A DNA stretch of 64,000 nucleotides from Candidatus Iainarchaeum sp. (GTDB lineage: Archaea > Iainarchaeota > Iainarchaeia > Iainarchaeales > JAZDFD01), in contig JAZDFD010000028.1 in assembly GCA_043808155.1 (NCBI GenBank), positions 6,697 through 70,696 of the forward strand, read 5' to 3'. The first letter of the stretch is position 1, and every line of letters starts with the position of its first letter. The notes under the pieces were generated by a model. That model was not told where the DNA came from. It did not search any database and saw only the letters and a list, made by a program, of their open reading frames with translations. This document shows, piece by piece, positions 5,414 through 57,160 of the stretch. A program made the position numbers and the translations under genes.

Positions 5414-6289
5414 TTATTTTTTGTTCTCGTTATGATTTTTGCGTTTTTTTAGGAGTAGGTATATGTTGGTAGGAGAATAGCCTGTTTTTTCTGCGATTTC
5501 AGAAACAGTATACATTGGCGTACCATCATTATTTTTCGTATTTGCTAATTTCGCCACATAGTTCTGTCGGTAGTCTCTTTCAATTTCTGCTTTTTTTAGG
5601 ATTTGACTCACTCCTTTTTTAGTTATTTCTGTCATTCTACCTATTTCTTCCAAAGTATAGGTTGGTTTTCTTGTTTTTATATTGTGTAGTGAGCCGAGGC
5701 GGATGATTTCTTCTGTTTTTGGATTTGGTTTTCTTCCTCTTAATGCTAGTCTTTTAATTTTTGCGTTTTTTAGGATTCGGTATATGTTGTTAGGAGAATA
5801 GCCTGTTTTTTCTGCGATTTCAGAAACAGTATACATTGGCTTACCATCATTATTTTTCGTATTTGCTAATTTCGCCACACGGTCCTGTCGGTAGTCTCTT
5901 TCAATTTTAGCTTTTTTTAGGATTGGGACTATTTGACTAGTGGAATAGCCTGTTTCTTTTGCGATGTCTGACAGTGTATGGGTTGGTTTTCCTTTTTTTA
6001 CATCGTGTAATGAGCCTAAGCGAATTACTTCTTCTTGCGGTGGGATTAATTTCATTGTAGATCGGGGTGATTTGCGTTGTCTTTTAAATCCTTCTTTAAA
6101 TAGGATTTGCCTTACTCTTTCGCGAGAGATGGGGGGGGATACCATCCTGCCTATTGTTGCATGAGAATATTTTGGTCTTTCTTTGCTTATGTTGAATATT
6201 GAATTCAAGCGAACTATTTCTTCGTTTCTGGAAAGAAAAATTAATTCACGTATGTTAAATTTTTTATATATTTTTGGTCTTATAGGCAC
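5414..6289 (-). CDS. Multi-helix-turn-helix repeat protein
   Basis: Five HTH-like units (e.g. TVSEIAEKTGYSPNNIYRIL, ISRERVRQIL); internal 107-aa duplication; TATA-like box about 25 bp upstream of the GTG start. Confidence 0.7.
   Translation of the reverse strand: MPIRPKIYKKFNIRELIFLSRNEEIVRLNSIFNISKERPKYSHATIGRMVSPPISRERVRQILFKEGFKRQRKSPRSTMKLIPPQEEVIRLGSLHDVKKGKPTHTLSDIAKETGYSTSQIVPILKKAKIERDYRQDRVAKLANTKNNDGKPMYTVSEIAEKTGYSPNNIYRILKNAKIKRLALRGRKPNPKTEEIIRLGSLHNIKTRKPTYTLEEIGRMTEITKKGVSQILKKAEIERDYRQNYVAKLANTKNNDGTPMYTVSEIAEKTGYSPTNIYLLLKKRKNHNENKK
5460..5924. repeat. Intragenic direct repeat, 321 bp period (about 145 bp near-identical blocks at 5460-5603 and 5781-5924)
   Basis: Direct comparison of the two blocks shows only scattered mismatches. 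Confidence 0.9.
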
Positions 6290-10128: not shown

Positions 10129-10194
10129 TGTGCGAACACAAAGTGTGAGCACGTCCAACCTTGTGTTGGACACAAGCTCGAGGATTGAGCCTCG
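10129..10194 (+). repeat. Palindromic element (type B core CAAGCTCGAGGATTGAGCCTCG) immediately 5' of tRNA-Asp
   Basis: 22-nt core identical at 10173, 19894 and 53420; hairpins GTGC-GA-ACAC-AAA-GTGT-GA-GCAC and GTCCAAC/GTTGGAC. Confidence 0.85.
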
Positions 10195-19669: not shown

Positions 19670-19995
19670 ATATACATAAACAAAGTATTTAAAGGTAATT
19701 AATGTGTCATAGCGAACAACGTGAGCGTACCCGATTTCTGCTTTAGCAGAAATGGGCGCATTTCAGCAGAGCTGAAATAGCGTGACACCCGTACTCGCCG
19801 GACGTGACGGCGATATACATAAACAAAGTATTTAAAGCTAATCCAAAAGCGAACAAAGTGAGCAAGTACTACCGAGCCAAAGCGAAGTGTACTCAAGCTC
19901 GAGGATTGAGCCTCGCGGGCGTTCGGCGCTGGACGTAACGGCGAGCGGAGCGAGATGTGGCACCACAGTGCCACGCGCACCAGCCTGGCGCTCGG
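19670..19995 (+). repeat. Composite cluster of palindromic elements with a 25-bp direct repeat
   Basis: ATATACATAAACAAAGTATTTAAAG at 19670 and 19813; GC-rich stacked hairpins; modules shared with 42513-42569, 10173 and 53420. Confidence 0.88.
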
Positions 19996-40764: not shown

Positions 40765-41187
40765 ATGGCTGCAGAAAAAAAAGTGAAAAAGGAAACAAAA
40801 GAAAAGAAAGCAGTCAAAGAAACAAAGAAAGCTGGAAAAACACCAGTAAAAGAAAAGAAAGACGATAAAAAAACTGAGAAAGTTAAACAGCTCTCAGCAA
40901 AAGAAACAACATCAAGTGAAGTTAAAGGTAAATTTTATTCAATTGTGAAACACCCTTTGATTTCAGAAAAAGCAGTTGGGATGATTGAAACACAAAACAA
41001 ATTAACTTTTGTTATTGAAAAAGGTTTTACTAAAAGTGAAGTTAAAAGGGCAGTAGAACAAATGTATAATGTAAAAGTTGACCGCGTCCAAGTAGTTAAT
41101 GATATGAAAGGAAGGAAAAAAGCAATTGTTAGAATAAACAAACAATACCGCGCAGATGAAATTGCAACAAAATTAGGGATATTGTAA
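40765..41187 (+). CDS. rpl23: Ribosomal protein uL23 with Lys/Glu-rich N-terminal extension
   Basis: PLISEKA...NKLTF...KKAIV. Confidence 0.94.
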   Translation: MAAEKKVKKETKEKKAVKETKKAGKTPVKEKKDDKKTEKVKQLSAKETTSSEVKGKFYSIVKHPLISEKAVGMIETQNKLTFVIEKGFTKSEVKRAVEQMYNVKVDRVQVVNDMKGRKKAIVRINKQYRADEIATKLGIL

Positions 41188-41197
41188 GGTGTAAATT

Positions 41198-41275
41198 TTG
41201 AAAAACCATAATTATTACTGTGGCATTGAAAATGCCACACATAAATCGGAGTACCCGTACGAAATCGGGTTGTGA
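41198..41275 (+). other. Type A palindromic element with 25-codon bridging ORF (MKNHNYYCGIENATHKSEYPYEIGL)
   Basis: ATTATTAC, hairpin GTGGCATT-GAA-AATGCCAC, then ACATAAATCGGAGTACCCGTACGAAATCGGGT; TTG start after AGGTG. Confidence 0.85.
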
Positions 41276-41279
41276 TAAC

Positions 41280-42011
41280 ATGCCTGGAAGACTAAAAACA
41301 CAAAGAAGAGGTAGAGGGACTCCGAGATACCTGGCCTCAAATAAGGGGATTACATGTACATATATTAATTATACAGATGAACAAAAGAAAGATGTATTAT
41401 TTGGCGAAGTTATTAGTTTGATAAAAACAACTGCAAGAAACAGTATTGTTGCAATTGAGAGATTTATAATAGACGGTAAGGAAACAGACTCACAAGTAAT
41501 AGCTGCAGAAGGGTTAAGTGTTGGTCAGAAAATCCAATACGGGACTAATGCAGAACTTGCAATCGGAAATGTTTTACCACTTTCGAAGATTCCGGAGGGG
41601 TGCCCTATATTCAATATTGAAAAAGAAAGTGGGGATGGCGGAACATTTGTAAAAAGCAGCGGGATTTACGCAATATTAGTTACAAAGGACAAGAAAAATG
41701 CTTACATTAAATTACCATCAGGAAAAACAAAACCATTCACCCTCTTGGCAAGAGCAACAATTGGATGTTCAGCATGCGGTGGAAGAACTGAAAAACCTTT
41801 CGTCAAAGCAGGAGCCAAATATTTTGCAATGAAAAGAAAAAGGAAAATGTGGCCAGTTGTAAGAGGTGTTGCAATGAACGCAGCATACCACCCACACGGT
41901 GGTGAACAGCACCATGTTGGTAAGAGTAAGTCTGTATCAAGACACGCTTCACCAGGAAGAAAGGTTGGTGCAATTGCTTCGAAGAGAACAGGAAGGAAAA
42001 AGAAAAACTAG
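41280..42011 (+). CDS. rpl2: Ribosomal protein uL2
   Basis: QRRGRG, VRGVAMN...HPHGG, PGRKVG; start set to ATG 41280. Confidence 0.96.
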   Translation: MPGRLKTQRRGRGTPRYLASNKGITCTYINYTDEQKKDVLFGEVISLIKTTARNSIVAIERFIIDGKETDSQVIAAEGLSVGQKIQYGTNAELAIGNVLPLSKIPEGCPIFNIEKESGDGGTFVKSSGIYAILVTKDKKNAYIKLPSGKTKPFTLLARATIGCSACGGRTEKPFVKAGAKYFAMKRKRKMWPVVRGVAMNAAYHPHGGEQHHVGKSKSVSRHASPGRKVGAIASKRTGRKKKN

Positions 42012-42021
42012 GGTGTGTTAG

Positions 42022-42429
42022 ATGGCAAGAGTAGAAGAAACATGGCGCGGTAAAAAGATCGAAGATCTTAAATCAATGGATATTTCAGAATTTATGAAAT
42101 TGATAGATTCAAGAGCAAGAAGAAGTATGAAAAGAGGTTTTGATAAAAAGCTCATGAAACAGATTGACAATTATGCTGAAAAAATCAAAGATGGAAAATA
42201 CCAAAAACCAATAAAAACACACCTGAGAGACACGATTGTGATTCCAAAAATGCTGGGACTTAAATTTGCAGTTTACAGAGGAAACAAGTTTGAGGATATT
42301 GACATCGTACCAAATATGCTCGGGCATTTTTTGGGTGAATTTGCACTTACAAGAAAAAGACTTCAGCATGGAAAGGCAGGAATTGGTGCAACAAGATCAA
42401 GTACTGCACTGAAGACAAAGAGAGTCTAA
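42022..42429 (+). CDS. rps19: Ribosomal protein uS19
   Basis: IKTHLRD, GHFLGEF, GIGATRSS. Confidence 0.96.
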   Translation: MARVEETWRGKKIEDLKSMDISEFMKLIDSRARRSMKRGFDKKLMKQIDNYAEKIKDGKYQKPIKTHLRDTIVIPKMLGLKFAVYRGNKFEDIDIVPNMLGHFLGEFALTRKRLQHGKAGIGATRSSTALKTKRV

Positions 42430-42437
42430 TGTGAAAA

Positions 42438-42575
42438 ATGATGATTAAGAAATATGAAAAAGCGGGTTATGACAGTGCCATCGCAGATGGCACGCGGAGC
42501 ACCCCGTACGCAACCCTATTTCAACTCAGGGTTGAAATGGGCGCATTTCACAAAAAAGTGAAATAGCGTCGAGTA
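42438..42575 (+). other. Composite palindromic element with 42-codon bridging ORF (42438-42566)
   Basis: GTGCCATC-GCA-GATGGCAC plus CGGAGCACCCCGTACG (type A-like), fused to a double-hairpin module also seen at 19729-19783. Confidence 0.82.
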
Positions 42576-42585
42576 GTGATTGAAA

Positions 42586-43059
42586 ATGGCTAAAAGAGAA
42601 TATCAGAAAAAAGTGAAAAATGAAGCAAAGATTGCAAAAGCGATAGCTGCGAATAAGCCAATTTCAGTTAAATATGCGACAGAAATGTGCAGAGAAATTA
42701 AGGGAAGACCTGTAAACAAAGTTGAGAAATTTTTAAACAGAATAATGAACAAAGAGGATTTCTTACCTCTTAAAAGATATGTGAAGAAAGTAGCACACAG
42801 AAAAGGTGACTCAAAATCAGGAACTAAAACAGGAAAATATCCAATAAGAGTTGCAAATGCATTTCTTGAACTTATTCAAACTGCAAAAGCAAATGCAGAT
42901 TTCAAAGGCATTGATACAGAATCGCTTTTGGTTTATCATGCATTTGCATCAACAGGTTTCAGAAGACACAGTGCACAGGCAAAAGGTCACATCGGCGGAA
43001 AGCGCAGAAGAAGTAAATCAACACATATTGAAATCATGCTTATAGAGGGAAAAAAATGA
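42586..43059 (+). CDS. rpl22: Ribosomal protein uL22
   Basis: ISVKYATEMCREIKG, GKYP, THIEI. Confidence 0.94.
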   Translation: MAKREYQKKVKNEAKIAKAIAANKPISVKYATEMCREIKGRPVNKVEKFLNRIMNKEDFLPLKRYVKKVAHRKGDSKSGTKTGKYPIRVANAFLELIQTAKANADFKGIDTESLLVYHAFASTGFRRHSAQAKGHIGGKRRRSKSTHIEIMLIEGKK

Positions 43060-44018
43060 TTGAAAGAACATTTATCAAACAGGCAATGAAAAAAATAGAG
43101 CTTGAGAAGTACATGAGAACCAATCTTGACAAAGCAGGGTTTACACACTTAGACATTGTGAAAACACCGTTGGTTACAAGAATCGTGCTTAATGTTACAA
43201 AACCAGGTCTGGCAATTGGAAAAGGCGGACAGACAATAAGACAACTTACAGAAGATATTGAAACAAAATTTGGAATTAACAATCCTCAGATAGAAATTAA
43301 GGAAATTGAAAATCCAACATTAGATGCACAGGCAACAGTTGACAAAATGGTTGCATTACTTGAAAGAGGTTTCAGCTGGAGAAGTATTGCATTCAGAACT
43401 GTAAAAGACATTATGGCTGCAGGTGCGCAGGGTTGTGAACTTGTGCTTAGCGGAAAATTAACAGGAAAAGGCGGAAGAAAAAGAAAGCAGAGAATTGCAG
43501 AAGGATATATGAAAAAAGTTGGACACCAAACAGAGTTAGTTGATTATGCAAAAAAATCCGCATACCCAAAAGCAGGTGCAATTGGAATTAAATTGAGAAT
43601 AATTAAACCAGGAGTACAGTTCCCAGATAAAATAAAAATCAATGACATAATCACAAAGAAAAAAGCTCCTATCGTAGAAAAAGAAAATGCAGATGCTGGA
43701 AAAACAGAAGTTACTGGTATCAAAGAAGAAGTGAAAATCGAAGTTAAAGAAAAAACTGAAAAGAAAGCAGAAGTTAAAGTTGAGAAGAAAGATAAGAAAC
43801 CAGTAGCATATAAAAAAGATGCTAAAAAAGAAGTGACGAACGAAAAGAAAACAGATAAAAAGGAAGCAAAGAAATTTGATAAACCAAAAGAAGAAAAGAA
43901 AAAATCAGATGACAAGAAAGAAACCAAAGTGAAAGAAGAAAAAGTTGACGACAAAAAAACTGAAAAGAAAGAAGTGAAAAAAGAAGATAAAAAATCAGAT
44001 GAGAAAAAAGATAAGTGA
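43056..44018 (+). CDS. rps3: Ribosomal protein uS3 with long Lys/Glu-rich C-terminal tail
   Basis: KPGLAIGKGG KH motif, GAQGCELVLSGKL. Confidence 0.96.
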   Translation: MIERTFIKQAMKKIELEKYMRTNLDKAGFTHLDIVKTPLVTRIVLNVTKPGLAIGKGGQTIRQLTEDIETKFGINNPQIEIKEIENPTLDAQATVDKMVALLERGFSWRSIAFRTVKDIMAAGAQGCELVLSGKLTGKGGRKRKQRIAEGYMKKVGHQTELVDYAKKSAYPKAGAIGIKLRIIKPGVQFPDKIKINDIITKKKAPIVEKENADAGKTEVTGIKEEVKIEVKEKTEKKAEVKVEKKDKKPVAYKKDAKKEVTNEKKTDKKEAKKFDKPKEEKKKSDDKKETKVKEEKVDDKKTEKKEVKKEDKKSDEKKDK

Positions 44019-44023
44019 TATTT

Positions 44024-44110
44024 ATGAATACGGGAAAAAATTATTACCGCAGTATCGAACGAAGTGAAGATACTGCACATAAATCGGAGCACCCGTACGA
44101 AATCGGGTAG
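44024..44110 (+). other. Type A palindromic element with 28-codon bridging ORF (MNTGKNYYRSIERSEDTAHKSEHPYEIG)
   Basis: GCAGTATC-GAACGAAGTGAA-GATACTGC hairpin plus conserved core; three consecutive stops TAG TGA TAG. Confidence 0.87.
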
Positions 44111-44118
44111 TGATAGTT

Positions 44119-44328
44119 ATGACAAATAAAGAAGCTAAATCATTCAGGGAGCTTCCAAAAGAAGAACTGAATGAAAAATTAGTGGATTTGCAAACAGAGC
44201 TTGCAAAAGAAAGAGCAACAGTTGCGTCTGGTACGCGACCTGAAAATCCTGGGAACATCAGGAAGCTCAGAAGAAATATTGCAAGACTTAAAACAATAAT
44301 TAATGAAAAAAATGAGGTGACTAAGTAG
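44119..44328 (+). CDS. rpl29: Ribosomal protein uL29
   Basis: ENPGNIRKLRRNIARLKT. Confidence 0.95.
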   Translation: MTNKEAKSFRELPKEELNEKLVDLQTELAKERATVASGTRPENPGNIRKLRRNIARLKTIINEKNEVTK

Positions 44329-44330
44329 CA

Positions 44331-44633
44331 ATGGAAGATATTTGTCCTAAATGCGGTCTCCCGCAAAACCTTTGTGTTTGCCAGGAGATTGCGAAGGAAA
44401 GCCAAAAAATAAAAATAAGAACTGACAAAAGAAGATTTGGTAAATTAGTGACAATTGTTTCGGGTTTGGATGAATCAAAAAGTGCAGATCAATTATGCAA
44501 GGAACTAAAAAGAAAACTTGCGTGTGGTGGCACTGTGAGAAACTCGGAAATTTTATTGCAAGGAAACCATAGTAAAAAAGTGAAAGCCTTTCTGCTAAAG
44601 CAGGGATATAAAGAGGAATTAATTGATGATTAA
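44331..44633 (+). CDS. sui1: Translation initiation factor aIF1/SUI1
   Basis: CPKCGLP...LKRKLACGGT...LQGNH. Confidence 0.95.
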   Translation: MEDICPKCGLPQNLCVCQEIAKESQKIKIRTDKRRFGKLVTIVSGLDESKSADQLCKELKRKLACGGTVRNSEILLQGNHSKKVKAFLLKQGYKEELIDD

Positions 44634-44937
44634 GGGAAAACATTATGAAATAACACAAAAAAATCTGCCTGCACATGAGCTTATCGGGCTTAATGCAAAG
44701 GTTGTGAAAAGTGTTGATTCAAAAAAAACCGGAGTTAAGGGAAAAGTTGTAAATGAAACAAAAAATATTCTGGAATTGGAGAACAACAGCGTTATAAAAA
44801 AAATCCCGAAAAAAGAAGTTGTGTTTGAATTTGAAATTGGAAATGAAAAAATTATAATTGACGGAAAAATGTTAAATGAAAAACCAGAGAATCGTGTAAA
44901 GGAGTTTTGGAGGAAATACCATGGAAAACTGCAATGA
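44623..44937 (+). CDS. rnp1: RNase P protein Rpp29
   Basis: HELIGL...GKVVNETKN...KPENR; synteny. Confidence 0.92.
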   Translation: MMIKGKHYEITQKNLPAHELIGLNAKVVKSVDSKKTGVKGKVVNETKNILELENNSVIKKIPKKEVVFEFEIGNEKIIIDGKMLNEKPENRVKEFWRKYHGKLQ

Positions 44938-45256
44938 CCCAAAGTGCCCAAAATGCGGCAATATCAAAGTAAGGGGCAATATTTTCACAGGTATTGTAAC
45001 ATCTGCAAAAGCAGATAAGACAGTCACTGTTGAAAGACAGTTAGTTAAAAAAGTTAGAAAATATGAAAGATACAAAAAAATAAGATCCAAAATCCATGCA
45101 CACAATTCAAAATGTGTTTCAGCAAAAGAAGGCGACACAGTAAGAATTGGAGAAACAAGAAAATTAAGCAAAACAAAAAGTTTTGTTGTGATGGACATTC
45201 TTAACAAAGGGTCAGATGAAAAGCCAAAAACAGATAAGAAAAAGGTGAAAAAATGA
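44921..45256 (+). CDS. rps17: Ribosomal protein uS17
   Basis: CNDPKCP, KYERY, ETRKLSKTKSF. Confidence 0.96.
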   Translation: MENCNDPKCPKCGNIKVRGNIFTGIVTSAKADKTVTVERQLVKKVRKYERYKKIRSKIHAHNSKCVSAKEGDTVRIGETRKLSKTKSFVVMDILNKGSDEKPKTDKKKVKK

Positions 45257-45651
45257 AAGCAATCAGCGCCAGAAGGACCATGGGTTTAACACAAAAAAGC
45301 AGATGCGTTTGCGCAGACAACTCAGGCGCAAAAGAGGTTGAAATCATCACAGTTTTTGGTCACAAATCAAGAAAAAAGATGAGTCCAAAAGGCGGAATCG
45401 CAGATATGGTTAATGTTGTTGTAAAAAAAGGAAAACCCGAAATCAGAAAAAAAGTTGAGCGTGCAGTTATTGTAAGAGTGAAACAAGAATACAGAAGAGC
45501 AAATGGCATGAGAGTAAAATTCGAAGACAATGCAGTTGTTCTTGTGGATAATAAGGGAATTCCTAAAGGAAGTGAAATTAAAGGTGCAGTTGCAAAAGAA
45601 GCTGCAGAAAGATGGGTAAAAATCGGGGGCATTGCCTCAGTAGTAGTATAG
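45253..45651 (+). CDS. rpl14: Ribosomal protein uL14
   Basis: ADNSGAK, FEDNAVV. Confidence 0.96.
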   Translation: MKAISARRTMGLTQKSRCVCADNSGAKEVEIITVFGHKSRKKMSPKGGIADMVNVVVKKGKPEIRKKVERAVIVRVKQEYRRANGMRVKFEDNAVVLVDNKGIPKGSEIKGAVAKEAAERWVKIGGIASVVV

Positions 45652-45660
45652 GTGGATTAA

Positions 45661-46137
45661 ATGAAAAGCTCAAAACCAAGAAAACAAAGAAAAGCGCTTT
45701 ACACAAGAACTGTTCATAAAAAACAGAATGACTTAGCAGGGCATCTGAGTAAAGAACTCAGAAAAGAGCTGAAACAAAGATCAATTCCTCTGAGAAAAGA
45801 AGACAAAGTTAAGATTATGAGAGGGTCACACAAGGCAAGAGAAGGAAAAATAATTGATGTTAATTACACCAAGGGATTTGTGTATATTGAAAAAGTTATC
45901 AGAAAAAAGGCAGACGGAACTGAAGTGCCGGTGCCGGTAAGAGCGTCAAATGTAATGGTTGTTGGCCTTTACAGAGATGATGACAGAAGAATTAAAAGAA
46001 AAACTCTGAAAAAAGTCACAAAATCCGAAAAAAAAGACAAGAAAGAAAAAGCTTATGACAAAAAAGCATATACAAAAGTGAAAGAAGAGAAATCTGAAAA
46101 AAAGGAAGATAATAAAGCTAAGGCGAAGGTGAAATAA
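45661..46137 (+). CDS. rpl24: Ribosomal protein uL24
   Basis: SSKPRKQRK, LSKELR, VKIMRG. Confidence 0.95.
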   Translation: MKSSKPRKQRKALYTRTVHKKQNDLAGHLSKELRKELKQRSIPLRKEDKVKIMRGSHKAREGKIIDVNYTKGFVYIEKVIRKKADGTEVPVPVRASNVMVVGLYRDDDRRIKRKTLKKVTKSEKKDKKEKAYDKKAYTKVKEEKSEKKEDNKAKAKVK

Positions 46138-46856
46138 TGGCTAAAAAAGGAAGCAAAAAATCAGAAAAAAGAATAAGCACTGATAAAGTCAGAAACATAA
46201 AGAAAAAAGAAAAAACATGGACAATAAAGGCAGAGCCAGGACCTCACAAAAAATCAACTTCCGTACCTTTAGGTTTTATTTTGAGAGACCTTCTTGAAGT
46301 AGCACAAAATTTGAGAGAAGTTAAACAGATACTTAACAGTAAAAGCGTCAAAGTAGACGGAACTTTAAGAACAAGTTACAGATTCCCTGTAGGTCTTTTC
46401 GATGTTGTTTCATTCAACAAAGATAAAAAAGGCTACAGATTAGTTTATGATTTTAAAGGCAGATTAATGGTCAAGGAAATTGAAGGCAAAGAACTTAACA
46501 AAAAAATATGTAAAATTACTAATAAAAAAACAGGGAAAACAGGAATTACTGAACTTGTAACAAATGATGGAAGAATATTCAAAGAAAAAAATGCGAAATA
46601 CAAAGTTGGTGATTCATTAGAAATTGAACTTCCCGGCCAGAAAATTTCAAAGTCACTTGAATTCGCAAAAGGGAACACAGCATATGTTTCAGGCGGAACG
46701 CACATTTCAGCAATGGGAAAAATAACAGAAATTGTTGCAGGAACAATGAAAAGAAAAACACTTGTTACATTGAAGACTGCAGACAAAGAAGAGTTCAGTA
46801 CAACTGAAAATAACATAATTGTTATTGGTAAAGAGAAAGGGGAAATAGATATTTAA
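46137..46856 (+). CDS. rps4e: Ribosomal protein eS4
   Basis: PGPH, FPVGLFDV, NDGR. Confidence 0.95.
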   Translation: MAKKGSKKSEKRISTDKVRNIKKKEKTWTIKAEPGPHKKSTSVPLGFILRDLLEVAQNLREVKQILNSKSVKVDGTLRTSYRFPVGLFDVVSFNKDKKGYRLVYDFKGRLMVKEIEGKELNKKICKITNKKTGKTGITELVTNDGRIFKEKNAKYKVGDSLEIELPGQKISKSLEFAKGNTAYVSGGTHISAMGKITEIVAGTMKRKTLVTLKTADKEEFSTTENNIIVIGKEKGEIDI

Positions 46857-46872
46857 AATTAGAGTGAGTTTT

Positions 46873-47385
46873 ATGACAGAAAATACAATGCGCACAATCA
46901 TTGTCGAGAAAGTTACTGTAAATATGGGTGTAGGCCAAGCTGGCGACGAACTCAAAAAATCAAAAACAGTAATTGAGACAATTACAGGTGCAAAAGCAAT
47001 TGAAACAAAGTGTAAAGTTAAACAACCAAAATGGGACATCAGACCAGGTTTACCTATTGGAATTAAAGTTACACTTAGAAAAAAACAGGCAACTGACTTT
47101 TTGAAACGTGCGATTAATGCAAAGCAAAACATAATCAAAAAAAAGAGTTTTGATATGCAGGGTAACTTCGGATTTGGAATCAAAGAACATATTGATCTTC
47201 CAGGAGTTAAATATGACCCTAAATTAGGAATACGGGGTCTTGATGTTTTAGTAACACTTAAAAGAAACGGACAGCGTGTTAAGAAAAGAAAAATTGCAAA
47301 AACAAAAATTGGCAAAAAGCACATAATAACAAAAAAAGACGCAATGCAATTCATGAAAGAACAATTTGGAGTTGAAGTTGAATGA
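46873..47385 (+). CDS. rpl5: Ribosomal protein uL5
   Basis: [30 protein letters not shown]. Confidence 0.96.
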
Positions 47386-47552
47386 GTTCCAAAACAAAAG
47401 GTCCAAAAAAAGATCTAAAAAAAGAAAAACAAGCAAGAGTATGCACAAATTGCGGGACTAGAAATGCAATCATAAGAAAATACAATCTCAATGTCTGCAG
47501 AAGATGCTTTAAAGAATTAGCAGAAAAATTAGGCTTTAGGAAATATGGTTAA
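47382..47552 (+). CDS. rps14: Ribosomal protein uS14 (56 aa, below the ORF-track cutoff)
   Basis: Manual translation MSSKTK...CTNCG...[26 protein letters not shown]; synteny. Confidence 0.95.
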
Positions 47553-47568
47553 ATGAGGGGTGGTAAAA

Positions 47569-47961
47569 ATGACATTAGTAGATCCAATAGCAAACGCAAT
47601 GATAAGCATTAAGAATAGCGACATTGCCTCAAAAAAAGAATGTATATTTCGACCTGCATCAAAACTTCTGGGAAAAATCTTAGAAGTTATGCAAAAAAAA
47701 GGATACATCGGAATTTATGAATTCATAGATGACGGACAAGAAGGTATTTACAAAATAGAACTTAAAGGAAAAATTAATGATTGTAAAGCAATAAAGCCAA
47801 GATATGCAGTTAAGAAAGATGGATTTGAAAAATTTGAAAAAAGATATTTACCTTCAAAGGATGTTGGAATTTTGATTGTTTCAACACCAGAGGGTGTATT
47901 AACACATAAAGAAGCAAAGGAATCCAATGTCGGGGGCAGATTATTAGCTTATATTTATTAA
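47569..47961 (+). CDS. rps8: Ribosomal protein uS8
   Basis: DPIANA, IKPRY, GGRLLAY. Confidence 0.96.
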
Positions 47962-47972
47962 TGGTGTTTTGA

Positions 47973-48515
47973 ATGAAAACAGGATTTGTGGAAGAAATAA
48001 TTGAAGTGCCGGAAGGCATTGAATGTGAAATTCAGAAAAAGACAGTTACTGTTAAGAAAGGAGATAAAACAATCACAAAAACATTTGATATGATTGGAGT
48101 AGTTTTCAAAAAAGAAGGGAACAGAGTTCAGATTTCCACAAAATATCCTAAGAAAAAAACTGCAGCAATGCTGAAAACAGCAGCGGCTCATTTGAAAAAT
48201 ATGATTAACGGACTTCAGGAAGAATATGTGTATAAGCTCGCAATTATTTATTCACACTTTCCAATGACTGTTACAGTTAAAGATGGATTTTTAGAAATAA
48301 ACAACTTTGCAGGTGAGAAAAAAACCAGAAAAGCAAAGATTATGGCTAATACAAAAGTTGAAGTTAAGGGGAAAGAAGTTACAGTTAGATCACATAACAA
48401 GGAAAATGCAGGTCAGACTACGGCAAATATTGAATCTGCAACAAAAGTAAAAGGAAAAGATAAAAGAATTTTTCAAGATGGCATTTGGATTACTGAAAAA
48501 CCAAAGAAAAGATAA
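47973..48515 (+). CDS. rpl6: Ribosomal protein uL6
   Basis: YSHFP, NFAGEK, DKRIFQDGI. Confidence 0.96.
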   Translation: MKTGFVEEIIEVPEGIECEIQKKTVTVKKGDKTITKTFDMIGVVFKKEGNRVQISTKYPKKKTAAMLKTAAAHLKNMINGLQEEYVYKLAIIYSHFPMTVTVKDGFLEINNFAGEKKTRKAKIMANTKVEVKGKEVTVRSHNKENAGQTTANIESATKVKGKDKRIFQDGIWITEKPKKR

Positions 48516-48526
48516 TGGGTGAAAAC

Positions 48527-49078
48527 ATGGCAACTGCAGAAAAACACAAAACTGATAAAAAAGAAGTGACGAAAGCAAAGAAAACATCAGTTACAACAAA
48601 AAAAGCAGATACTAAAACAAAAACTGCAGAAAAAAAAGAAACAACTGCAAAGAAAAAAACTGCAGAAAAAAAACCAGGTGCTAAAAAAACAATTAAAAAA
48701 AGCAGTGCTGCAAAAAAAGCACAGGCATTAATTAAAAAGAAAGTTAAGAAACCAAGTTTCAGAGGAAGATTTGGTTCGAGAAAATTCAGAAGAAAAAGTA
48801 ACGCAAAATGGGACAAATGGAGAAAACCGCGTGGTATTGATATCAAAGACACCCAGGAAAACGGAACTAGTCCAAGAACAGGTTATGGTACTTGCAAACT
48901 CATAAAGACTATGCACCCTTCAGGATATTATGAAAAAATGATATTTAATCCAAGAGATTTGGACGGTATTGATGCAGAAAGATTTGCATTGAGAATTTCA
49001 GCAGGTGTAGGAAAGAAAAAAAGGTCTGAAATTGCAAAAAAAGCAAGGGAAATGGGACTACGTATTTTAAACAGGTGA
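48527..49078 (+). CDS. rpl32e: Ribosomal protein eL32 with Lys/Thr-rich N-terminal extension
   Basis: WRKPRGID, GYG, HPSG. Confidence 0.94.
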   Translation: MATAEKHKTDKKEVTKAKKTSVTTKKADTKTKTAEKKETTAKKKTAEKKPGAKKTIKKSSAAKKAQALIKKKVKKPSFRGRFGSRKFRRKSNAKWDKWRKPRGIDIKDTQENGTSPRTGYGTCKLIKTMHPSGYYEKMIFNPRDLDGIDAERFALRISAGVGKKKRSEIAKKAREMGLRILNR

Positions 49079-49082
49079 AAAA

Positions 49083-49160
49083 ATGATTTACAAAAAAAAT
49101 TATTACCGTGGGATTGTAAATCCCACACATAAATCGGAGCACCCGTACGAAATCGGGTAG
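49083..49160 (+). other. Type A palindromic element with 25-codon bridging ORF (MIYKKNYYRGIVNPTHKSEHPYEIG)
   Basis: GTGGGATT-GTA-AATCCCAC hairpin plus conserved core; AGGTGA RBS before the ATG. Confidence 0.87.
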
Positions 49161-49169
49161 GTGAAATGA

Positions 49170-49610
49170 ATGAAACTAGACCAAGTAAAGAGATTAGCCG
49201 CAGATGTTCTTAACGTGGGCGTAACCAGAATATGGATTGACCCTAAAGAAGTTGGGAATGTTGCAGAAGTTATTACAAAAGATGATGTAAGAGCTTTAGT
49301 TGCAGACGGAGTAATCAAGAAAAGAAGAGTGCAGGCACAAAGCCACGGCCATGCACGTTTATTAGCTGAAAAGAAAAGTAAAGGTCTGAAAAAAGGAAAA
49401 GGTAAAAGAAAAGGAAAAGTTAATGCAAGAACACATAGAAAGAAAAAGTGGATTAAAACAGTCCGTGCACAAAGAGATGAACTTAAAAAACTTAAAACAG
49501 AAAACCCTGAAGCAGTTGCAGAAGCAAATTACCATTCTATTTACAGAAGAATAAAAGGCGGATATTACAAAGGTAGAAAATACGTGAGAAGCGCAGTACT
49601 TAAGAAGTGA
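49170..49610 (+). CDS. rpl19e: Ribosomal protein eL19
   Basis: KRLAADVL...RIWIDP, WIKTVRAQR, KGG. Confidence 0.95.
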   Translation: MKLDQVKRLAADVLNVGVTRIWIDPKEVGNVAEVITKDDVRALVADGVIKKRRVQAQSHGHARLLAEKKSKGLKKGKGKRKGKVNARTHRKKKWIKTVRAQRDELKKLKTENPEAVAEANYHSIYRRIKGGYYKGRKYVRSAVLKK

Positions 49611-49720
49611 TGATTATGAATTTAGAAGAAAATTATTACCGTGGTTTTGAGCAAAACGAAAAACCACACATAACTCGGAGCACCCGTACGAAATCGGGTA
49701 GTGCAATACTTAAGAAGTGA
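49610..49720 (+). other. Type A palindromic element with 36-codon bridging ORF ending in a duplicate of the rpl19e 3' end
   Basis: GTGGTTTT-GAGCAAAACGA-AAAACCAC hairpin plus core; flanking repeats at 49590-49618 and 49700-49729. Confidence 0.85.
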
Positions 49721-49726
49721 TAAATT

Positions 49727-50314
49727 ATGGCAAACAAAGCAACATACGATGTTCAATTCAAAAGAAGAAGCAATGGTAAAACCAATTACAAAAAAAGACT
49801 GGCATTAGTTAAATCAGGAAAGCCAAGATTAGTTGTAAGGAAAACCAACAGCAGAATAATTGTACAGATTATTGCATATGAGAGACCCGGTGACAAGGTT
49901 ATTGTAAGTGCAACATCAGTACAGCTTAAAAAATATGGCTGGGCAGGAAACAAAAATATACCTTCAGCATATTTAACAGGATTACTTTGCGGAATGCGCG
50001 CAAAAGAAGCAAAAATTAATCAAGCAGTTTTAGATATTGGATTTAGAACACCTGTTCACATGTCAGTTCCATTCGCAGCACTAAAAGGTGCACTGGATGC
50101 AGGGCTTGACATTCCATTTGATGAAACCGCACTTCCAAAAGAAGACAGAATCACAGGAAAACATATTGAAAACTATGCAAATTCATTGGATAGCGAAGAA
50201 ATTAACAAAAAGTTTTCAAAAATGATTAAAAATAATGTAAATCCAAAAGAAATTACAAAAATATTCCAAAATACTAAAGAGAAAATTGTGGGAAACAGTA
50301 ATGTAAAAGAGTGA
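49727..50314 (+). CDS. rpl18: Ribosomal protein uL18
   Basis: GKTNYKKRL, RLVVRKTN, SAYLTG. Confidence 0.96.
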   Translation: MANKATYDVQFKRRSNGKTNYKKRLALVKSGKPRLVVRKTNSRIIVQIIAYERPGDKVIVSATSVQLKKYGWAGNKNIPSAYLTGLLCGMRAKEAKINQAVLDIGFRTPVHMSVPFAALKGALDAGLDIPFDETALPKEDRITGKHIENYANSLDSEEINKKFSKMIKNNVNPKEITKIFQNTKEKIVGNSNVKE

Positions 50315-50318
50315 TGAT

Positions 50319-51011
50319 ATGGCAGTTAGAAGAAGACAAACCGCAGAAGAGAGAGAATCCAAAAGGCTGAAAGATAAAGAGCAGGAACTGATTAAATGGG
50401 TGGCTAAAACAAAATTAGGCAAAATGGTACAGAATGAAGAAATCAAATCATTAGACGAAGTCTTTGCTAAAAATATGAAAATACTTGAACCGGAAATTGT
50501 TGATACACTTTTGAGCCTTGAAGAAGAAATGGTTGACTTTAAGAAAACTTCCAGAGTTGTAAGAGCAGGAAGAAAATTTTCATTCCGTGTTACAATGCTT
50601 GTTGGTGATAAAAACAAGTATGTGGGATACGGAACTGCAAAAGATGTTGAAAGATTCCCTGCAATGAGAAAGGCAGTCAGAAAAGCAAAACTTAATCTTG
50701 TAGAAGTTAAGAAAGGCTGCGGAAGCTGGGAATGCACCTGCGGTGCCGAGCATTCAGTACCTTTTGAAGTTGAAGGGAAATGTGCATCAGTACATGTGCG
50801 ATTAATACCTGCACCAAAAGGAGTTGGATTAGTTGCAGGTGACAATATTAAAAAAGTGCTTGAAATGGCAGGTCTGAAAGATGTATGGACAAAAACATCA
50901 GGCAACACAAGAACAAAATTGAATTTTGTTATTGCTGCAGTTGACGCACTTTCAAAAACAGGGAAAATGAGAATGTCAGATGACATTGCAAAAAAGTTTG
51001 AACACAAGTGA
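50319..51011 (+). CDS. rps5: Ribosomal protein uS5
   Basis: EPEIVD, GCGSWEC, PAPKGVG. Confidence 0.96.
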   Translation: MAVRRRQTAEERESKRLKDKEQELIKWVAKTKLGKMVQNEEIKSLDEVFAKNMKILEPEIVDTLLSLEEEMVDFKKTSRVVRAGRKFSFRVTMLVGDKNKYVGYGTAKDVERFPAMRKAVRKAKLNLVEVKKGCGSWECTCGAEHSVPFEVEGKCASVHVRLIPAPKGVGLVAGDNIKKVLEMAGLKDVWTKTSGNTRTKLNFVIAAVDALSKTGKMRMSDDIAKKFEHK

Positions 51012-51478
51012 TGATTATGTATGTGGTTATAAGAATAAGAGGAAATGTCAGAGTAAGAGATAAATTAGAGGATACTCTTGGAATGCTAAGACTTAACAGA
51101 GTTAATCATGCAGTTCTTGTTCCTGAGGGAAAACAATACAAAAACATGGTGCGAAAAGTTGAGCCATTTATAACATACGGTGAAATCAATGTAGAAATGC
51201 TTGAAAAGATGCTTGCAAAACGCGGTAAAACAGAAACAGGAAAGAAATTAACAAGTGAATTTTTGAAGGAAATTAAATTTGCATCAATGAAGGACTTAGC
51301 AGACGCAGTTATTTCAGGAAAAACTACACTGAAAAAACTCGGAATTAAACCTGTGTTCAGATTACACCCTCCAAAAAAAGGTCACATGAGACAGGGGATA
51401 AAGAAAAATTATAGTTTAGGCGGAGCTGCAGGTTACAGAGCCTCAGATATAAATGTTTTAGTTAAGAAAATGATTTAG
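51008..51478 (+). CDS. rpl30: Ribosomal protein uL30
   Basis: VIRIRG, TYGE, FRLHPP. Confidence 0.95.
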   Translation: MMIMYVVIRIRGNVRVRDKLEDTLGMLRLNRVNHAVLVPEGKQYKNMVRKVEPFITYGEINVEMLEKMLAKRGKTETGKKLTSEFLKEIKFASMKDLADAVISGKTTLKKLGIKPVFRLHPPKKGHMRQGIKKNYSLGGAAGYRASDINVLVKKMI

Positions 51479-51486
51479 GTGTCTTT

Positions 51487-51996
51487 ATGGTTGTAAGAAA
51501 ACGTAGAAAGAAAAATACTCTCAGAGGAAACAGAGTTCACGGAAAAGGTGATACCAAAAACAAGAGAGGTGCAGGTTGCAGAGGCGGCAGAGGACGCGCT
51601 GGTTCACACAAACATAAATTCACAAAATACTGGAAAACATTTGGGAAATTTGGAAAATTGAAAGTTAAGAAAACACTTATTGGAATTAACCTTTCAGATC
51701 TTGTTGAGAAACTTCCAAAACTTGTTTTGACAAAGAAAGTTGAACAGGAAAAAGGAGCATACATTATTGACGGAAAGAAATTGAAATTTGACAAGATTTT
51801 GGGCAGAGGTAAACTCAATGAACAATTAATAGTAAAAAATCTTGAAGTAACTAAAAAGGCTGCAGAGATAATTAAAAAGGCAGGCGGAAAAATAGAGAAA
51901 TTAAAAGAAGAAATAACAGACAAAGACGTTGAAGAACAAGATGAAGAATTAGCAGACGATGACTTTGAAGAAACATCAGACATGGACGAGAAGTGA
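51487..51996 (+). CDS. rpl15: Ribosomal protein uL15 with acidic tail
   Basis: RGAGCRGGRGRAG, KILGRG. Confidence 0.95.
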   Translation: MVVRKRRKKNTLRGNRVHGKGDTKNKRGAGCRGGRGRAGSHKHKFTKYWKTFGKFGKLKVKKTLIGINLSDLVEKLPKLVLTKKVEQEKGAYIIDGKKLKFDKILGRGKLNEQLIVKNLEVTKKAAEIIKKAGGKIEKLKEEITDKDVEEQDEELADDDFEETSDMDEK

Positions 51997-52000
51997 TTTT

Positions 52001-53377
52001 GTGGGAATACTGGATATTTTTGAACCAATTTACAATGCGTTGCCTGAAATAAAGCAGCCTGTGAAGGAAGTTCCACTTAAGAAAAAACTTATCTGGACAG
52101 GTCTTGTTTTACTTTTGTTTTATATAATGGGAAATATTACACTTATTGGTTTAGCAGGTGTGAGAGGAGATGAACTTACAAATCTCCAGATTATTCTTGC
52201 AAGTAATATCGGAACATTAATTACTGCAGGAATCAGCCCTATTGTTTTGTCATCAATTATTTTGCAGTTACTTGTTGGTGGAAAAATCATTGACATTGAT
52301 TTGTCACAGCCAAAAGATAAAGCAAGATTTCAGGGTCTGCAAAAATTATTTGCAGTTGCACTTTGTTTATTTGAAGGTGTGATTTACGTTGCATCAGGTA
52401 TGCTTGAACCATCTGAAGGGATGTTTTTAATTGTGGTTGCGCAGGTTGCACTTGGTTCAATAATTTTACTTTACTTAGATGAATTAGTTTCAAAATACGG
52501 TATTGGTTCAGGAGTTGGATTGTTTATTGCAGGTGGAGTTACAGGCAGCTTCTTGTGGTTGGTTTTGAGACCTCCGCTTATTGCAGGAGATCCTGGCGGG
52601 GCAATTTCACAATTCATTGGAAGTCTTGCAACAGGAGTTAATTTTGTTATTTTAATTCCAATCTTGATTGCAATTGCAATTTTCTTAATAATTGTATTTG
52701 CAGAAGGAATGCATGTGAATATTCCGATAACAATGGGCAGAAAAGGAACTGGCGGAAGATTCCCTGTTAAGCTGCTTTATGTTTCAAATATTCCTGTTAT
52801 TTTAGCAGTTGCATTATTTGCAAATTTCCAGTGGTGGTCATTAATGAGTGCAGAACTTGATCTTCCACTGATTGGTAAAGGAATCGGATGGGTAATGGGT
52901 GGTTTAGCTTATTATACAACAGCACCATATGGTTTGTTCGCAGATATAATTGACAGAGTTGGTGCAGAAGGCATGCAGGGATTGTTCTTCATGTCAGGTG
53001 ATTTATTCCATGCACTCATTTACATGGTTATTTTGATTGCATCATGTATTATTTTCGGTAAATTTTGGGTTGAAATGGGCGGTCAGGGTGCAGAAGCAGT
53101 TTCAAAGCAGTTAAGCGGAAGCGGAATGTACATCCCGGGATTCAGAAGAGACAGCAGAATCATAAGGCAGGTTCTTGACAGATATATTCCACCGATTGTG
53201 ATTATTGGTTCAATATTTGTTGCATTATTAGCAGGCTTCGGAGATATGACACTGAATAATTTGTCATCAGGAACAGGAATTTTGCTGACAGTTGGTATTG
53301 TTTACAGACTTTATGAAGAGCTTGCTAAGGAGCAGCTAATGGAAACAAATCCCTTATTCAAGAGGTTTTTTGGATGA
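52001..53377 (+). CDS. secY: Protein translocase subunit SecY
   Basis: GISPIV, KYGIGSG, YVSNIPVIL, IPGFRR, GTGILL. Confidence 0.96.
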   Translation: MGILDIFEPIYNALPEIKQPVKEVPLKKKLIWTGLVLLLFYIMGNITLIGLAGVRGDELTNLQIILASNIGTLITAGISPIVLSSIILQLLVGGKIIDIDLSQPKDKARFQGLQKLFAVALCLFEGVIYVASGMLEPSEGMFLIVVAQVALGSIILLYLDELVSKYGIGSGVGLFIAGGVTGSFLWLVLRPPLIAGDPGGAISQFIGSLATGVNFVILIPILIAIAIFLIIVFAEGMHVNIPITMGRKGTGGRFPVKLLYVSNIPVILAVALFANFQWWSLMSAELDLPLIGKGIGWVMGGLAYYTTAPYGLFADIIDRVGAEGMQGLFFMSGDLFHALIYMVILIASCIIFGKFWVEMGGQGAEAVSKQLSGSGMYIPGFRRDSRIIRQVLDRYIPPIVIIGSIFVALLAGFGDMTLNNLSSGTGILLTVGIVYRLYEELAKEQLMETNPLFKRFFG

Positions 53378-53547
53378 AATACGTAAGTGATGGGAAAAAC
53401 AGTGCTACCGAAAGACACACAAGCTCGAGGATTGAGCCTCGCGGGCGTTCGGCTATGGACAATATTAATAAAACTATGGTAACCCTAAATAATACGCAAA
53501 TATACCGATTTTTAACCAAATTTGGGATTTTTGGGAGTGTGTTTTAA
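53374..53547 (+). other. Type B palindromic element inside a 57-codon ORF bridging the secY stop and the next start
   Basis: Core CAAGCTCGAGGATTGAGCCTCGCGGGCGTTCGGC at 53420-53453; ATGA overlap at 53374 and TAATG overlap at 53545. Confidence 0.8.
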
Positions 53548-57044: not shown

Positions 57045-57160
57045 GCAGGAGTACCAAAGTGGTTAAATGGGCGGGACTTAAGATGTTATTATGAAGTCAT
57101 TAAAATCATGGGAAATCCCGTGGCTTAGTGCCTCCGCAGGTTCGAATCCTGCCTCCTGCA
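57045..57160 (+). tRNA. tRNA-Leu (TAA) with a 32-nt intron at position 37/38 (57083-57114)
   Basis: GCAGGAG/CTCCTGC acceptor, CGGGA/TCCCG anticodon stem, long variable arm, TTCGAAT T loop; BHB-like junction (CTTA/TGGG helix, AGA and AAA bulges). Confidence 0.92.

Follow-up and report, generated by a model that had tools for sequence, protein, structure and literature searches.

The S10/spc ribosomal-protein operon of Candidatus Iainarchaeum sp. raises the question of why short open reading frames (ORFs) should span each of its widest gaps. In the window, the whole 64,000-nt stretch of DNA analysed here, six spacers of this operon are long (91-169 nt; in operon order 92, 156, 100, 91, 116 and 169 nt), the remaining 24 junctions of the cluster measure -38 to +16 nt, and a bridging ORF is present in all six long spacers. 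These ORFs, all on the forward strand, lie at 41198..41275 (25 codons, TTG start; between L23, whose stop ends at 41187, and L2, ATG at 41280), 42438..42566 (42 codons; S19, stop end 42429, and L22, ATG 42586), 44024..44110 (28 codons; S3, stop end 44018, and L29, ATG 44119), 49083..49160 (25 codons; L32e, stop end 49078, and L19e, ATG 49170), 49610..49720 (36 codons; L19e, stop end 49610, and L18, ATG 49727) and 53374..53547 (57 codons; SecY, stop end 53377, and the next membrane-protein gene, ATG 53547). Two are nested in frame in longer GTG ORFs, 44024-44110 in one starting at 44015 and 49610-49720 in one starting at 49607. Four of them begin 10, 8, 5 and 4 nt past the upstream stop, and the ORFs starting at 49610 and 53374 overlap it by 1 and 4 nt, respectively; at the other end, five finish 4, 19, 8, 9 and 6 nt short of the next ATG, and the one ending at 53547 shares 1 nt with it. 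The first-pass annotation had placed six ORFs here, with the peptides that we obtain by translation, and had claimed that every insert within the operon is spanned, from about 10 nt or less behind the upstream stop to about 20 nt or less before the downstream start; translation and measurement of all six bear this out. In every bridge-to-gene pair the stop overlaps the next start or lies within ~20 nt of it, as termination-reinitiation demands.

A peptide motif, NYY...HKSE(H/Y)PYEIG, is common to three copies in the window, as had been noticed, and the copy at 49610 indeed reads the same core in another frame. The motif is shared because these copies share a DNA repeat (family D1, 4 copies). 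A small-peptide family encoded by the ORFs, the alternative raised in the first-pass annotation, is hardly credible in spite of the common motif, since the copies use different frames and it is base pairing, not residues, that is conserved. The same DNA is read in another frame, giving ...R(S/H)(T/A)RTK(S/T)G, at 49610, C4:15975, L047 and L116; the hairpin evolves through compensatory base changes; and copies adjacent to tRNAs or in antisense are equally conserved.

The repeat belongs to a modular family composed of a 5' module, (A/T)TATTAC(C/T)G, a covarying hairpin, the sequence CACATA(T/A), and finally either an H-type pseudoknot or a different 3' module. In the hairpin alignment 94.6% of cells are paired and 9 of 17 pairs have changed on both sides, a result matched by none of 500 shuffles (slid controls reached at most 46.6%). 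The pseudoknot covaries across genomes as well (UCG:CGA, GCG:CGC, CCG:CGG). In the window, on the forward strand, a copy with 5' module, hairpin P1 and pseudoknot occupies 41208..41270 (CM hit C28:47904-47976, E=8.8e-25; alignment A3) and is followed directly by the SD GTGAT and the L2 ATG. Further copies lie at 44037..44108, with a long P1 (C28:50733-50814, E=1.1e-26), at 49096..49158 (CM hit) and at 49629..49699 (C28:56325-56405, E=2.4e-26). The copy at 42463..42563 is diverged and composite, as seen from a weak CM hit (C28:49159-49238, E=0.0097), its fold and a regex for the nested module: its hairpin is fused straight to the GCGGAG start of the pseudoknot, and a nested two-hairpin module (~42517-42563) interrupts it. 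A repeat search placed a second type of 3' module, repeat D6, at 53417..53460; its hairpin, CTCGAGG..CCTCG, is also found directly 5' of tRNA genes elsewhere.

The 1.08-Mb Iainarchaeota genome contains ~45 copies of the family (48 CM matches at E<=1). Matches occur in 21 of 40 relatives and in 44 of 141 sampled genomes of the phylum, leaving 97 without a match; all genomes compared are metagenome assemblies. Against Rfam 15, the whole window gave only two tRNA matches at the gathering score, and between 41000 and 54000 no match at E<=10 overlapped the elements. Sense copies sit just 5' of an SD/ATG or of tRNA position +1, and antisense copies abut tRNAs and ORFs at their 3' ends; the sites also include gene starts, small-RNA ends and tRNA leaders. 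Family members occur within tRNA introns too, forming or sitting within those of tRNA-Tyr and tRNA-Arg(cct) in this genome and those of tRNA-Ser in three relatives.

Copies are flanked by 14-40-nt duplications of local sequence. When 44 copies were tested against mismatched flank pairs, 10 showed flank duplication at p<0.01, two of these being tandem arrays without target duplication, and 3 more at p<0.05. Perfect duplications of 16-20 nt are present in this genome, and a perfect one of 31 nt in L037. Within the window, an SD plus ATG at 44014..44027 (forward strand) recurs at 44109-44122 (13/14 identical, p=0.0085), and the last L19e codons with stop, SD and ATG at 49590..49618 (forward strand) recur at 49700-49729 (score 18.5, p=0.0053). 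Empty sites can be seen in related contigs. In a ~93% identical X1 metagenome contig 49081 is joined to 49169, the 87 nt from 49082 to 49168 being absent, and this comparison identifies the ATG of the bridging ORF at 49083 as the former L19e start. In a second X1 contig 16 nt stand in for 49618-49726. The L2|S19 junction, empty in this genome, is occupied in L116 and in one X1 contig, and the L23|L2 spacer of other Iainarchaeum-type loci measures 0-40 nt, without the element in 16 of 16. Judged from these comparisons of sequence, with flank duplications, empty sites and one differently occupied site, the family is mobile.

The conserved structure could also be read as a host cis-acting RNA (a leader, a signal for processing or stability, or a pseudoknot that binds a ligand or protein) instead of selfish DNA, the ORFs being incidental. 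In keeping with this, the pseudoknot is maintained with covariation across many families of the phylum, the 3' end of the element abuts SD sequences and tRNA position +1 (L049, L069, L072, L048 and C26:62600), and the reverse complement of the 5' module is a hairpin followed by a T-run, found at the 3' ends of convergent genes. We nevertheless consider this reading unlikely, given that presence differs between ~93% identical strains, that duplicated flanks accompany the copies, that the 97 genomes and the 16 L23|L2 junctions of named relatives lack the family, and that both orientations and even introns are occupied. A cis-acting role would in any case be compatible with mobility and does not exclude it.

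No mobilising enzyme could be tied to the family among those checked (transposases and reverse transcriptases, through Y1, RVT_1 and TnpB-like ORFs). Neither Y1 transposase nor RVT_1 was found in genome G000 (88% complete), where two TnpB-like ORFs are present with ends unlike the element; the copy-rich genomes G014, G015, G029, G010, G032 and G018 gave no match to PF01797 (Y1), and G001 has 5 such matches and zero elements. Like prokaryotic MITEs, REP/BIME and Correia-type repeats, the elements are small, non-autonomous, multi-copy and hairpin-forming, are transcribed with the operon when they lie in its spacers, and are present in some strains and absent from others; they differ from them in the conserved pseudoknot and in duplications that are 14-40 nt and variable, not short and fixed, a length unusual for a transposase. 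Target-site duplication agrees with a MITE, but terminal inverted repeats do not occur: in A3 the 5' terminus, ..TATTACCG, is not the reverse complement of the 3' terminus, ..CGGGT, and the only inverted repeats are internal hairpins (alignment A3, fold). The enzyme searches in G000 likewise gave no autonomous partner for a MITE, and derivation from IS200/IS605 as a PATE or REP-RAYT is at odds with the duplications and with a Y1 (HUH) transposase that does not co-occur. A conserved pseudoknot, target duplications of long and variable length, and the lack of a visible enzyme characterise what is apparently an undescribed mobile element.

How could such insertions come to be spanned by ORFs? At tight junctions the duplicated target comprises the upstream stop, the SD and the downstream start, and because it carries all three the insertion itself makes the bridging ORF. 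From copy 1 of the duplication, an SD and start remain whose reading frame now runs into the element, which has few stops; copy 2 provides a stop (the duplicated upstream stop, or a TGA/TAG at the SD) plus the true SD and start. We think it probable that the six ORFs are by-products of the insertion of a structured mobile repeat and that a filter decides which insertions persist. Insertions into tightly coupled essential operons would survive mainly if the new ORF ends at the position of the old stop; ribosomes would then be delivered to the downstream start, with neither an early stop nor an out-of-frame overrun, and the bridge peptides would have no function of their own. The first-pass annotation had favoured the view that inserts are tolerated only where a ribosome can be relayed across them. 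A relay or survivorship filter is moderately supported by the sequence comparisons, and what that proposal missed is the cause, namely mobile elements with long target duplications.

The ORF statistics bear on whether any filter is needed. Whole-spacer dinucleotide shuffles gave bridging-ORF probabilities of 0.087, 0.034, 0.168, 0.29, 0.053 and 0.025 for the six spacers, and interior-only shuffles 0.325, 0.055, 0.27, 0.41, 0.23 and 0.058. Six bridged spacers out of six is thus far from chance under the dinucleotide-shuffle null; the four D1 copies are homologous and therefore not independent trials. An explanation without selection, in which the duplication supplies start and stop, the element is stop-poor, and the ORFs are neutral, untranslated or irrelevant, draws on several facts. 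Of 43 genome copies, 30 have a sense ORF across the core, and some of these lie next to tRNAs or within tRNA introns; frames across the element are open almost as often in antisense (67/129) as in sense (72/129); and each downstream gene retains its own SD and ATG. A relay is favoured by the count in this genome, where 10 of 11 sense copies just 5' of protein genes are ORF-spanned; the exception, C1:17932, lies between two co-directional ORFs without a bridge. A second counter-example to a filter is L23|L2 of G014, where the sole ORF stops within the hairpin and either alternative phase would bridge. On the other side, a phase-shift control found 7 of 9 informative junction insertions bridged against 4.0 expected (P=0.038), in a test that is small and hand-curated. 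Together with the coding pattern of copy 2 described below, this leaves the neutral explanation a serious but minority possibility.

Bridged or in-frame insertions recur elsewhere, at L5|S14 (L074/L079), at L23|L2 (L082), at the ends of rpoB (L047) and SecY (L087), and in L066, L116 and L122; in L089 the S17 frame continues across the element and meets L14 in an ATGA overlap. According to a passage of PMC10666635, termination-reinitiation coupling is almost lost at a spacer of ~20 nt, and this article and PMC6728339 (Huber et al. 2019 and 2023) describe overlap or a very short distance as a requirement. The bridges resemble the gene pairs of Huber et al. in stopping between 1 nt inside and 19 nt ahead of the next start, and differ in that the putative coupling would pass through an inserted intermediary ORF, which would be new relative to the coupled pairs described in these articles. 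A further parallel is offered by the Rickettsia palindromic elements, portrayed in a section of PMC10969869 as short structured repeats that persist in or against genes without breaking frames, as the in-frame insertions C4:15975, C24:19591, L066 and L089 do here. In contrast to them, the present family resides in an archaeon, most copies lie at gene junctions, where they make a separate relay ORF and not an insert in frame within a protein, the duplicated flanks are long and differ in length, and tRNA introns and leaders are also occupied.

The duplicated gene ends hold a pattern that a relay alone does not explain, namely that copy 2 retains residues of the upstream protein. Where duplications cover upstream codons, the spanning ORF reads copy 2 in the frame of the upstream gene in all six cases, four of them with a start that overlaps the upstream stop as ATGA/GTGA, and copy 2 keeps the C-terminal residues and a stop in all six. 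At 49610..49720, for example, the ORF ends in SAILKK*, a copy of the L19e end SAVLKK*. The 25 nt differences between duplicated ends cause 6 residue changes against 17.4 expected, a value reached by 0 of 50000 simulations. The last sense codon is identical in five of the six pairs and synonymous in the sixth, and in each pair both copies then have a stop; matching last codons and stop are the pattern expected of any duplication under coding constraint.

Mitochondrial byp elements are mobile structured inserts with matching flanking codons and a stop directly after the first copy. The present elements resemble these and the T4 gene 60 insert on each of these points, and on some messages copy 2 might be translated as the genuine C-terminus of the upstream protein, the element being removed from the RNA or skipped by the ribosome; we regard this as quite improbable. 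The idea that the two copies serve as take-off and landing regions, as in phage T4 gene 60 or byp elements, seems to us just as doubtful. In favour of decoding, residues and stop are kept even in L122, which has the full pattern yet no downstream gene to relay to, several pairs of copies lose their similarity at the stop codon, and behind the last sense codon lies a stop, with the stable hairpin and pseudoknot further on. A mobile element is reported to include the bypass insert of gene 60 (10.1101/2022.08.31.505936). Against it, skipping gains no protein sequence, because copy 1 already ends the protein correctly: unlike bypass inserts, the element follows a complete gene, and bypass would leave the protein unchanged. 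Most copies, moreover, lie outside coding sequence. Occupation of tRNA introns favours removal from RNA and likens the family to archaeal bulge-helix-bulge introns, but strict motifs of this kind, defined as two 3-nt bulges around a 4-bp helix, with a further helix on either side, across the ends of the insert, are not enriched in the operon: 12 coding-context copies contain 4, and flank shuffles give 3.0.

Combining these observations, we tentatively entertain a broader reading, doubtful as it is, in which every new copy of the pseudoknotted family would assemble a translated relay and for that reason be retained in essential operons. Such a relay would begin with the SD and start duplicated from the downstream gene, run through an element body with few stops, and close with a second set of the last upstream codons and stop; this conserved copy 2 would be decoded by relay, hopping or RNA-level removal. 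Were it true, translation, and perhaps transcription-translation coupling, would stay continuous across selfish DNA, and a family that supplies tRNA introns and leaders would be a candidate arrival route for archaeal tRNA introns, a route called open in a passage of a recent preprint (10.64898/2026.10.13.758758). If the simpler relay holds, compact archaeal operons would tolerate selfish insertions through a specific translational arrangement, and would offer a natural setting in which to test how tightly genome architecture is bound by termination-reinitiation or by transcription-translation coupling. As a mobile element the family is tractable to study. For annotation, bridging ORFs and GTG-extended gene starts should not be called genes, an example being the 'L2' call from 41220.

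The archaeal S10/spc ribosomal-protein cluster occupies 38.9-56.3 kb of the window (C28:6697-70696 of a 1.08-Mb, 35-contig genome, here G000, with 35% G+C, an estimated completeness of 88% and, as nearest named relatives, 'Candidatus Iainarchaeum' and other archaeal MAGs of the DPANN group). Its genes, named by eye from their translations and not by family scan, run L3, L4, L23, L2, S19, L22, S3, L29, SUI1-like, RNase P protein, S17, L14, L24, S4e, L5, S14, followed by S8, L6, L32e, L19e, L18, S5, L30, L15, SecY, membrane protein, L34e, L14e, S13, S4, S11. The mechanical L2 ORF (41220-42011) begins at a GTG within an inserted element, the true start being the ATG at 41280; the L29 ORF, given from a GTG at 44110, probably starts at the ATG at 44119. 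Six short ORFs (41198-41275, 42438-42566, 44024-44110, 49083-49160, 49610-49720 and 53374-53547) bridge spacers of this cluster, and their translations match those of the first-pass annotation. As claimed there, they start near the upstream stop (10, 8, 5 and 4 nt after it, with overlap for those at 49610 and 53374) and end near the next start (4, 19, 8, 9 and 6 nt before the ATG, with overlap at 53547). Every long spacer of the cluster, six in all (92, 156, 100, 91, 116 and 169 nt), holds one of them, the remaining 24 junctions measuring -38 to +16 nt. The chance of such an ORF per spacer was 0.025-0.29 in dinucleotide shuffles, and 0.055-0.41 with the spacer ends fixed. Under the dinucleotide-shuffle null the bridging pattern is beyond chance, with the limit that the inserts include four homologous copies, which are not independent trials.

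One repeat is common to four of the six spacers. Across 12 copies in the genome it consists of an 8-bp hairpin (P1), a helix of 5-6 bp (P2) and a 3-bp pseudoknot formed by the bases 5' of a GAG with the P2 loop. In the repeat alignment 94.6% of cells were paired and 9 of 17 pairs were altered on both sides; none of 500 shuffles equalled this, and slid controls reached at most 46.6%. The pseudoknot alternates between UCG:CGA, GCG:CGC and CCG:CGG across genomes. Rfam scans, at the gathering score and at E<=10, gave no match on the elements. The family is modular: a 5' module and hairpin come with the pseudoknot in some copies and with a different 3' module in others. The S19/L22 insert is a diverged element copy with a nested two-hairpin module; in the SecY spacer the 3' module is of another kind, the D6 hairpin (CTCGAGGATTGAGCCTCG). 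D6 has 7 matches in the genome, among them window 10170-10194, 19891-19934 and 53417-53460, C6:22236 and C34:12195 (C, contigs of G000), and its 3' end precedes tRNA-Asp (window 10195), tRNA-Arg(gcg) and tRNA-Val(tac) by 1-2 nt; it appears to be one more of the family's 3' modules and to serve as a 5' leader of tRNAs. The nested module (TATTTCA..TGAAATG.GC, then CATTTCA..TGAAA) sits within element copies, where either the P1 loop or the pseudoknot hosts it; a regular expression gave 6 matches, of which 5 look real (window 42517-42563, C1:123, C14:53310, C20:7340 and C35:18495), and similar nested hairpins are found in the relatives G012 and G039 (loci L078 and L087) and at locus L054. Folding energy showed no bias between sense and antisense (36 vs 30 of 68, Wilcoxon p=0.16) and does not set the strand of a functional RNA. 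One fold had paired a 5' strand, AUUAUUACC, with the Shine-Dalgarno sequence (SD) GGUAGUGAU; we dropped this anti-SD pairing because the covarying P2 helix is incompatible with it and because the copies at C12:37488 and C12:69865 lack it. A TATA-box role for the 5' module would be at odds with the variable length of the hairpin.

The repeat bears marks of insertion. We compared the upstream and downstream flanks of each copy, using mismatched pairs as the null. Among 44 copies, local flank duplications were found at p<0.01 in 10, two of them tandem arrays, and at p<0.05 in 3 further. Perfect duplications measure 16, 17, 17 and 20 nt in G000 and 31 nt at locus L037. Of the 10 non-tandem duplications looked at, 8 lay within 5 nt of the pseudoknot end; between the duplication and the 5' module there is a filler of 0-29 nt that is often A-rich. 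An empty L32e/L19e site exists in a groundwater metagenome contig of ~93% identity, where 49081 is joined to 49169 (AGGTGAAAA directly followed by AATGAAAC), and in a second groundwater contig 49618-49726 is replaced by 16 nt. L2/S19, a 10-nt junction in G000, is occupied by an element copy in another metagenome contig and at metagenome locus L116. The L23/L2 spacer is element-free, at 0-40 nt, in 16/16 other Iainarchaeum-type loci.

Such insertions can themselves make a bridging ORF, since the target duplicated in a tight junction includes the stop of the upstream gene along with the SD and start of the downstream one. At L32e/L19e the former L19e start is the bridge ATG (49083). At S3/L29 both the upstream half of the duplication (copy 1, 44014-44027) and the downstream half (copy 2, 44109-44122) contain an SD and an ATG. 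At L19e/L18 the ~30 duplicated nucleotides comprise the final seven L19e codons, stop, SD and ATG, and the bridge therefore ends in SAILKK* after the SAVLKK* of L19e. The duplicated stop, SD and start thus account for the 'GTGA-type RBS' that the first-pass annotation had noted before the bridges, and also for the stop beside each true start. In addition, the element body is stop-poor, with open frames in 72/129 cases sense and 67/129 antisense against a shuffle expectation of 49.1.

It had been proposed that the inserts either are tolerated only where a ribosome can be relayed across them or encode a family of small peptides; the latter reading is rejected. Regarding the relay, a start-to-stop sense ORF covers the element core in 30 of 43 G000 copies, tRNA-adjacent and intronic ones included, so ORF-spanning as such is common. 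By setting, 10 of the 11 sense copies just 5' of protein genes are spanned (four D1-family copies in the window, C31, C4, C24:25851, C11:917, C24:19591 and C7:18768, the exception being C1:17932), as are 20 of the 32 others. The C4 copy is in frame with the ATG of its gene, and the C24:19591 copy lies in frame inside the 5' end of an ORF. We used a phase-shift control, in which all sequence is kept and the entry phase altered, on 13 junction insertions (ten from G000 and three from relatives). A strict bridging criterion held for 9 of the 13; the misses were C1:17932, C31 (whose ORF runs 10 nt past the start), C4 (which runs off the contig and is unscorable) and L23/L2 of the relative G014 (early stop). 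Junctions are informative where some phases bridge and others do not, as in 9 of the 13, and 7 of these 9 were bridged vs 4.0 expected (P=0.038). In relatives, the G014 L5/S14 bridge overlaps L5 at its start and S14 at its end, each time by an ATGA; that at L23/L2 of G024 starts in a TAATG overlap and stops 6 nt short of L2, and in G023 S17 is read on across the element until it overlaps L14 in an ATGA. The same design is seen at the rpoB end of G012, the SecY end of G039, L066 of G015 (an in-frame fusion) and the metagenome loci L116 and L122. PMC10666635 describes termination-reinitiation coupling as almost gone at a spacer of ~20 nt. The relay is partly supported, as a survivorship filter on insertions whose bridges are made by long target duplications.

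Where the duplication covers codons of the upstream gene, copy 2 retains the C-terminal residues and stop in 6/6 cases (L19e in the window, G012 rpoB, G014 L5, G039 SecY, L116 L2, and L122). The element-spanning ORF is in the copy-2 frame in all six, starting between 4 nt inside and 15 nt after the upstream stop. The two copies differ by 25 nt and only 6 residues, boundary codons included, where random placement gives 17.4 and 0/50000 simulations gave <=6, in a post hoc test whose six cases were picked after the pattern was seen (an earlier version used four). The relay accounts for the copy-2 frame but not for the residue conservation. In several pairs the copies cease to resemble each other at the stop codon, and at L122 no downstream gene follows and a terminator-like hairpin comes next. 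One candidate explanation is that copy 2 is decoded, whether by a relay, by hopping or by removal of RNA. Alternatively, the insertion allele may have been transferred between species by recombination, the two copies then being orthologues, or constrained duplications alone may stay recognisable.

A covariance model gave 48 matches at E<=1 in G000, matched 21/40 genomes of relatives and, in a sample of the phylum, 44/141 genomes (G000 counted). The ribosomal-protein clusters of 20 relatives (L076-L095, 387 kb) gave 8 matches at E<=1 with at most two per cluster, compared with six inserts in that of G000, and thus added little statistical power. Three genomes from different families (G000, G024 and G014) have an insert at L23/L2, and the SecY 3' end is occupied in G000, G012 and G039. 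An exact-pattern scan of viral contigs gave 0 matches. Some copies lie sense, directly 5' of the SD/ATG of protein genes or of tRNA position +1; others, antisense, abut the 3' ends of tRNAs and convergent ORFs. The pseudoknot end faces the gene boundary in every case looked at. Copies also occur within tRNA introns, in G000 in tRNA-Tyr (sense) and tRNA-Arg(cct) (antisense) and in relatives in tRNA-Ser of three. In these last, from two families (L041 of G027, L046 of G015, L059 of G040), the antisense copy is the anticodon-loop intron; the insertion is either old or was gained repeatedly at one site. Some copies are preceded by RNAs with RUGAUGA...CUGA motifs, which resemble C/D-box small RNAs; copies directly after such RNAs (L036, L038 and L044 of relatives, C2:2482 of G000) show 16-26 nt of the RNA 3' end duplicated.

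Regarding the mobilising machinery, an IS200/IS605 or REP-RAYT link was rejected, as the occurrence of Y1 transposase does not track the element family. G000 contains two TnpB/Cas12f-like ORFs of 413-414 codons (C23:24585-25826 and C7:8169-9413); a TnpB-like partner was likewise discarded, their ends being unlike the element and their flanks without similarity to it. No RVT_1 (reverse transcriptase) domain was found in G000, and bulge-helix-bulge motifs were not enriched at operon copies. The precise junction on the pseudoknot side, the variable 5' filler and the variable duplication length resemble, speculatively, retroposition of a small RNA, for instance a 5' leader that is freed from a tRNA at position +1. 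Among known systems the family comes closest to Rickettsia palindromic elements and further MITE-like repeats of prokaryotes (PMC10969869); it departs from the MITE definition in terminal inverted repeats and partner transposase. Mobile translational-bypass inserts (10.1101/2022.08.31.505936) are an additional analogue. No account of this kind of element in DPANN or Iainarchaeota turned up in the main texts of the literature searched.

The ARAGORN list for G000 comprises 31 tRNAs, and several expected ones are absent. At window 57045-57160 Rfam places a 116-nt tRNA, which ARAGORN gives as tRNA-Ser(tga) with a 32-nt intron and misses without the intron option. At C20:3884-4055, where ARAGORN reports no tRNA, two element copies surround a 37-nt stretch that resembles, in antisense, a tRNA 3' half (T-arm and acceptor) and may belong to a split or otherwise disrupted tRNA gene. 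Element units also form tandem pairs or short arrays with periods of ~85-140 nt, some identical (C1:28150/28234, C23:50710/50811 and C12:29546 in G000; L036, L040, L043 and L062). Another repeat, of 96-159 nt (families D2 and D3), occurs 3-4 times in tandem-like fashion at window 5429-5992.
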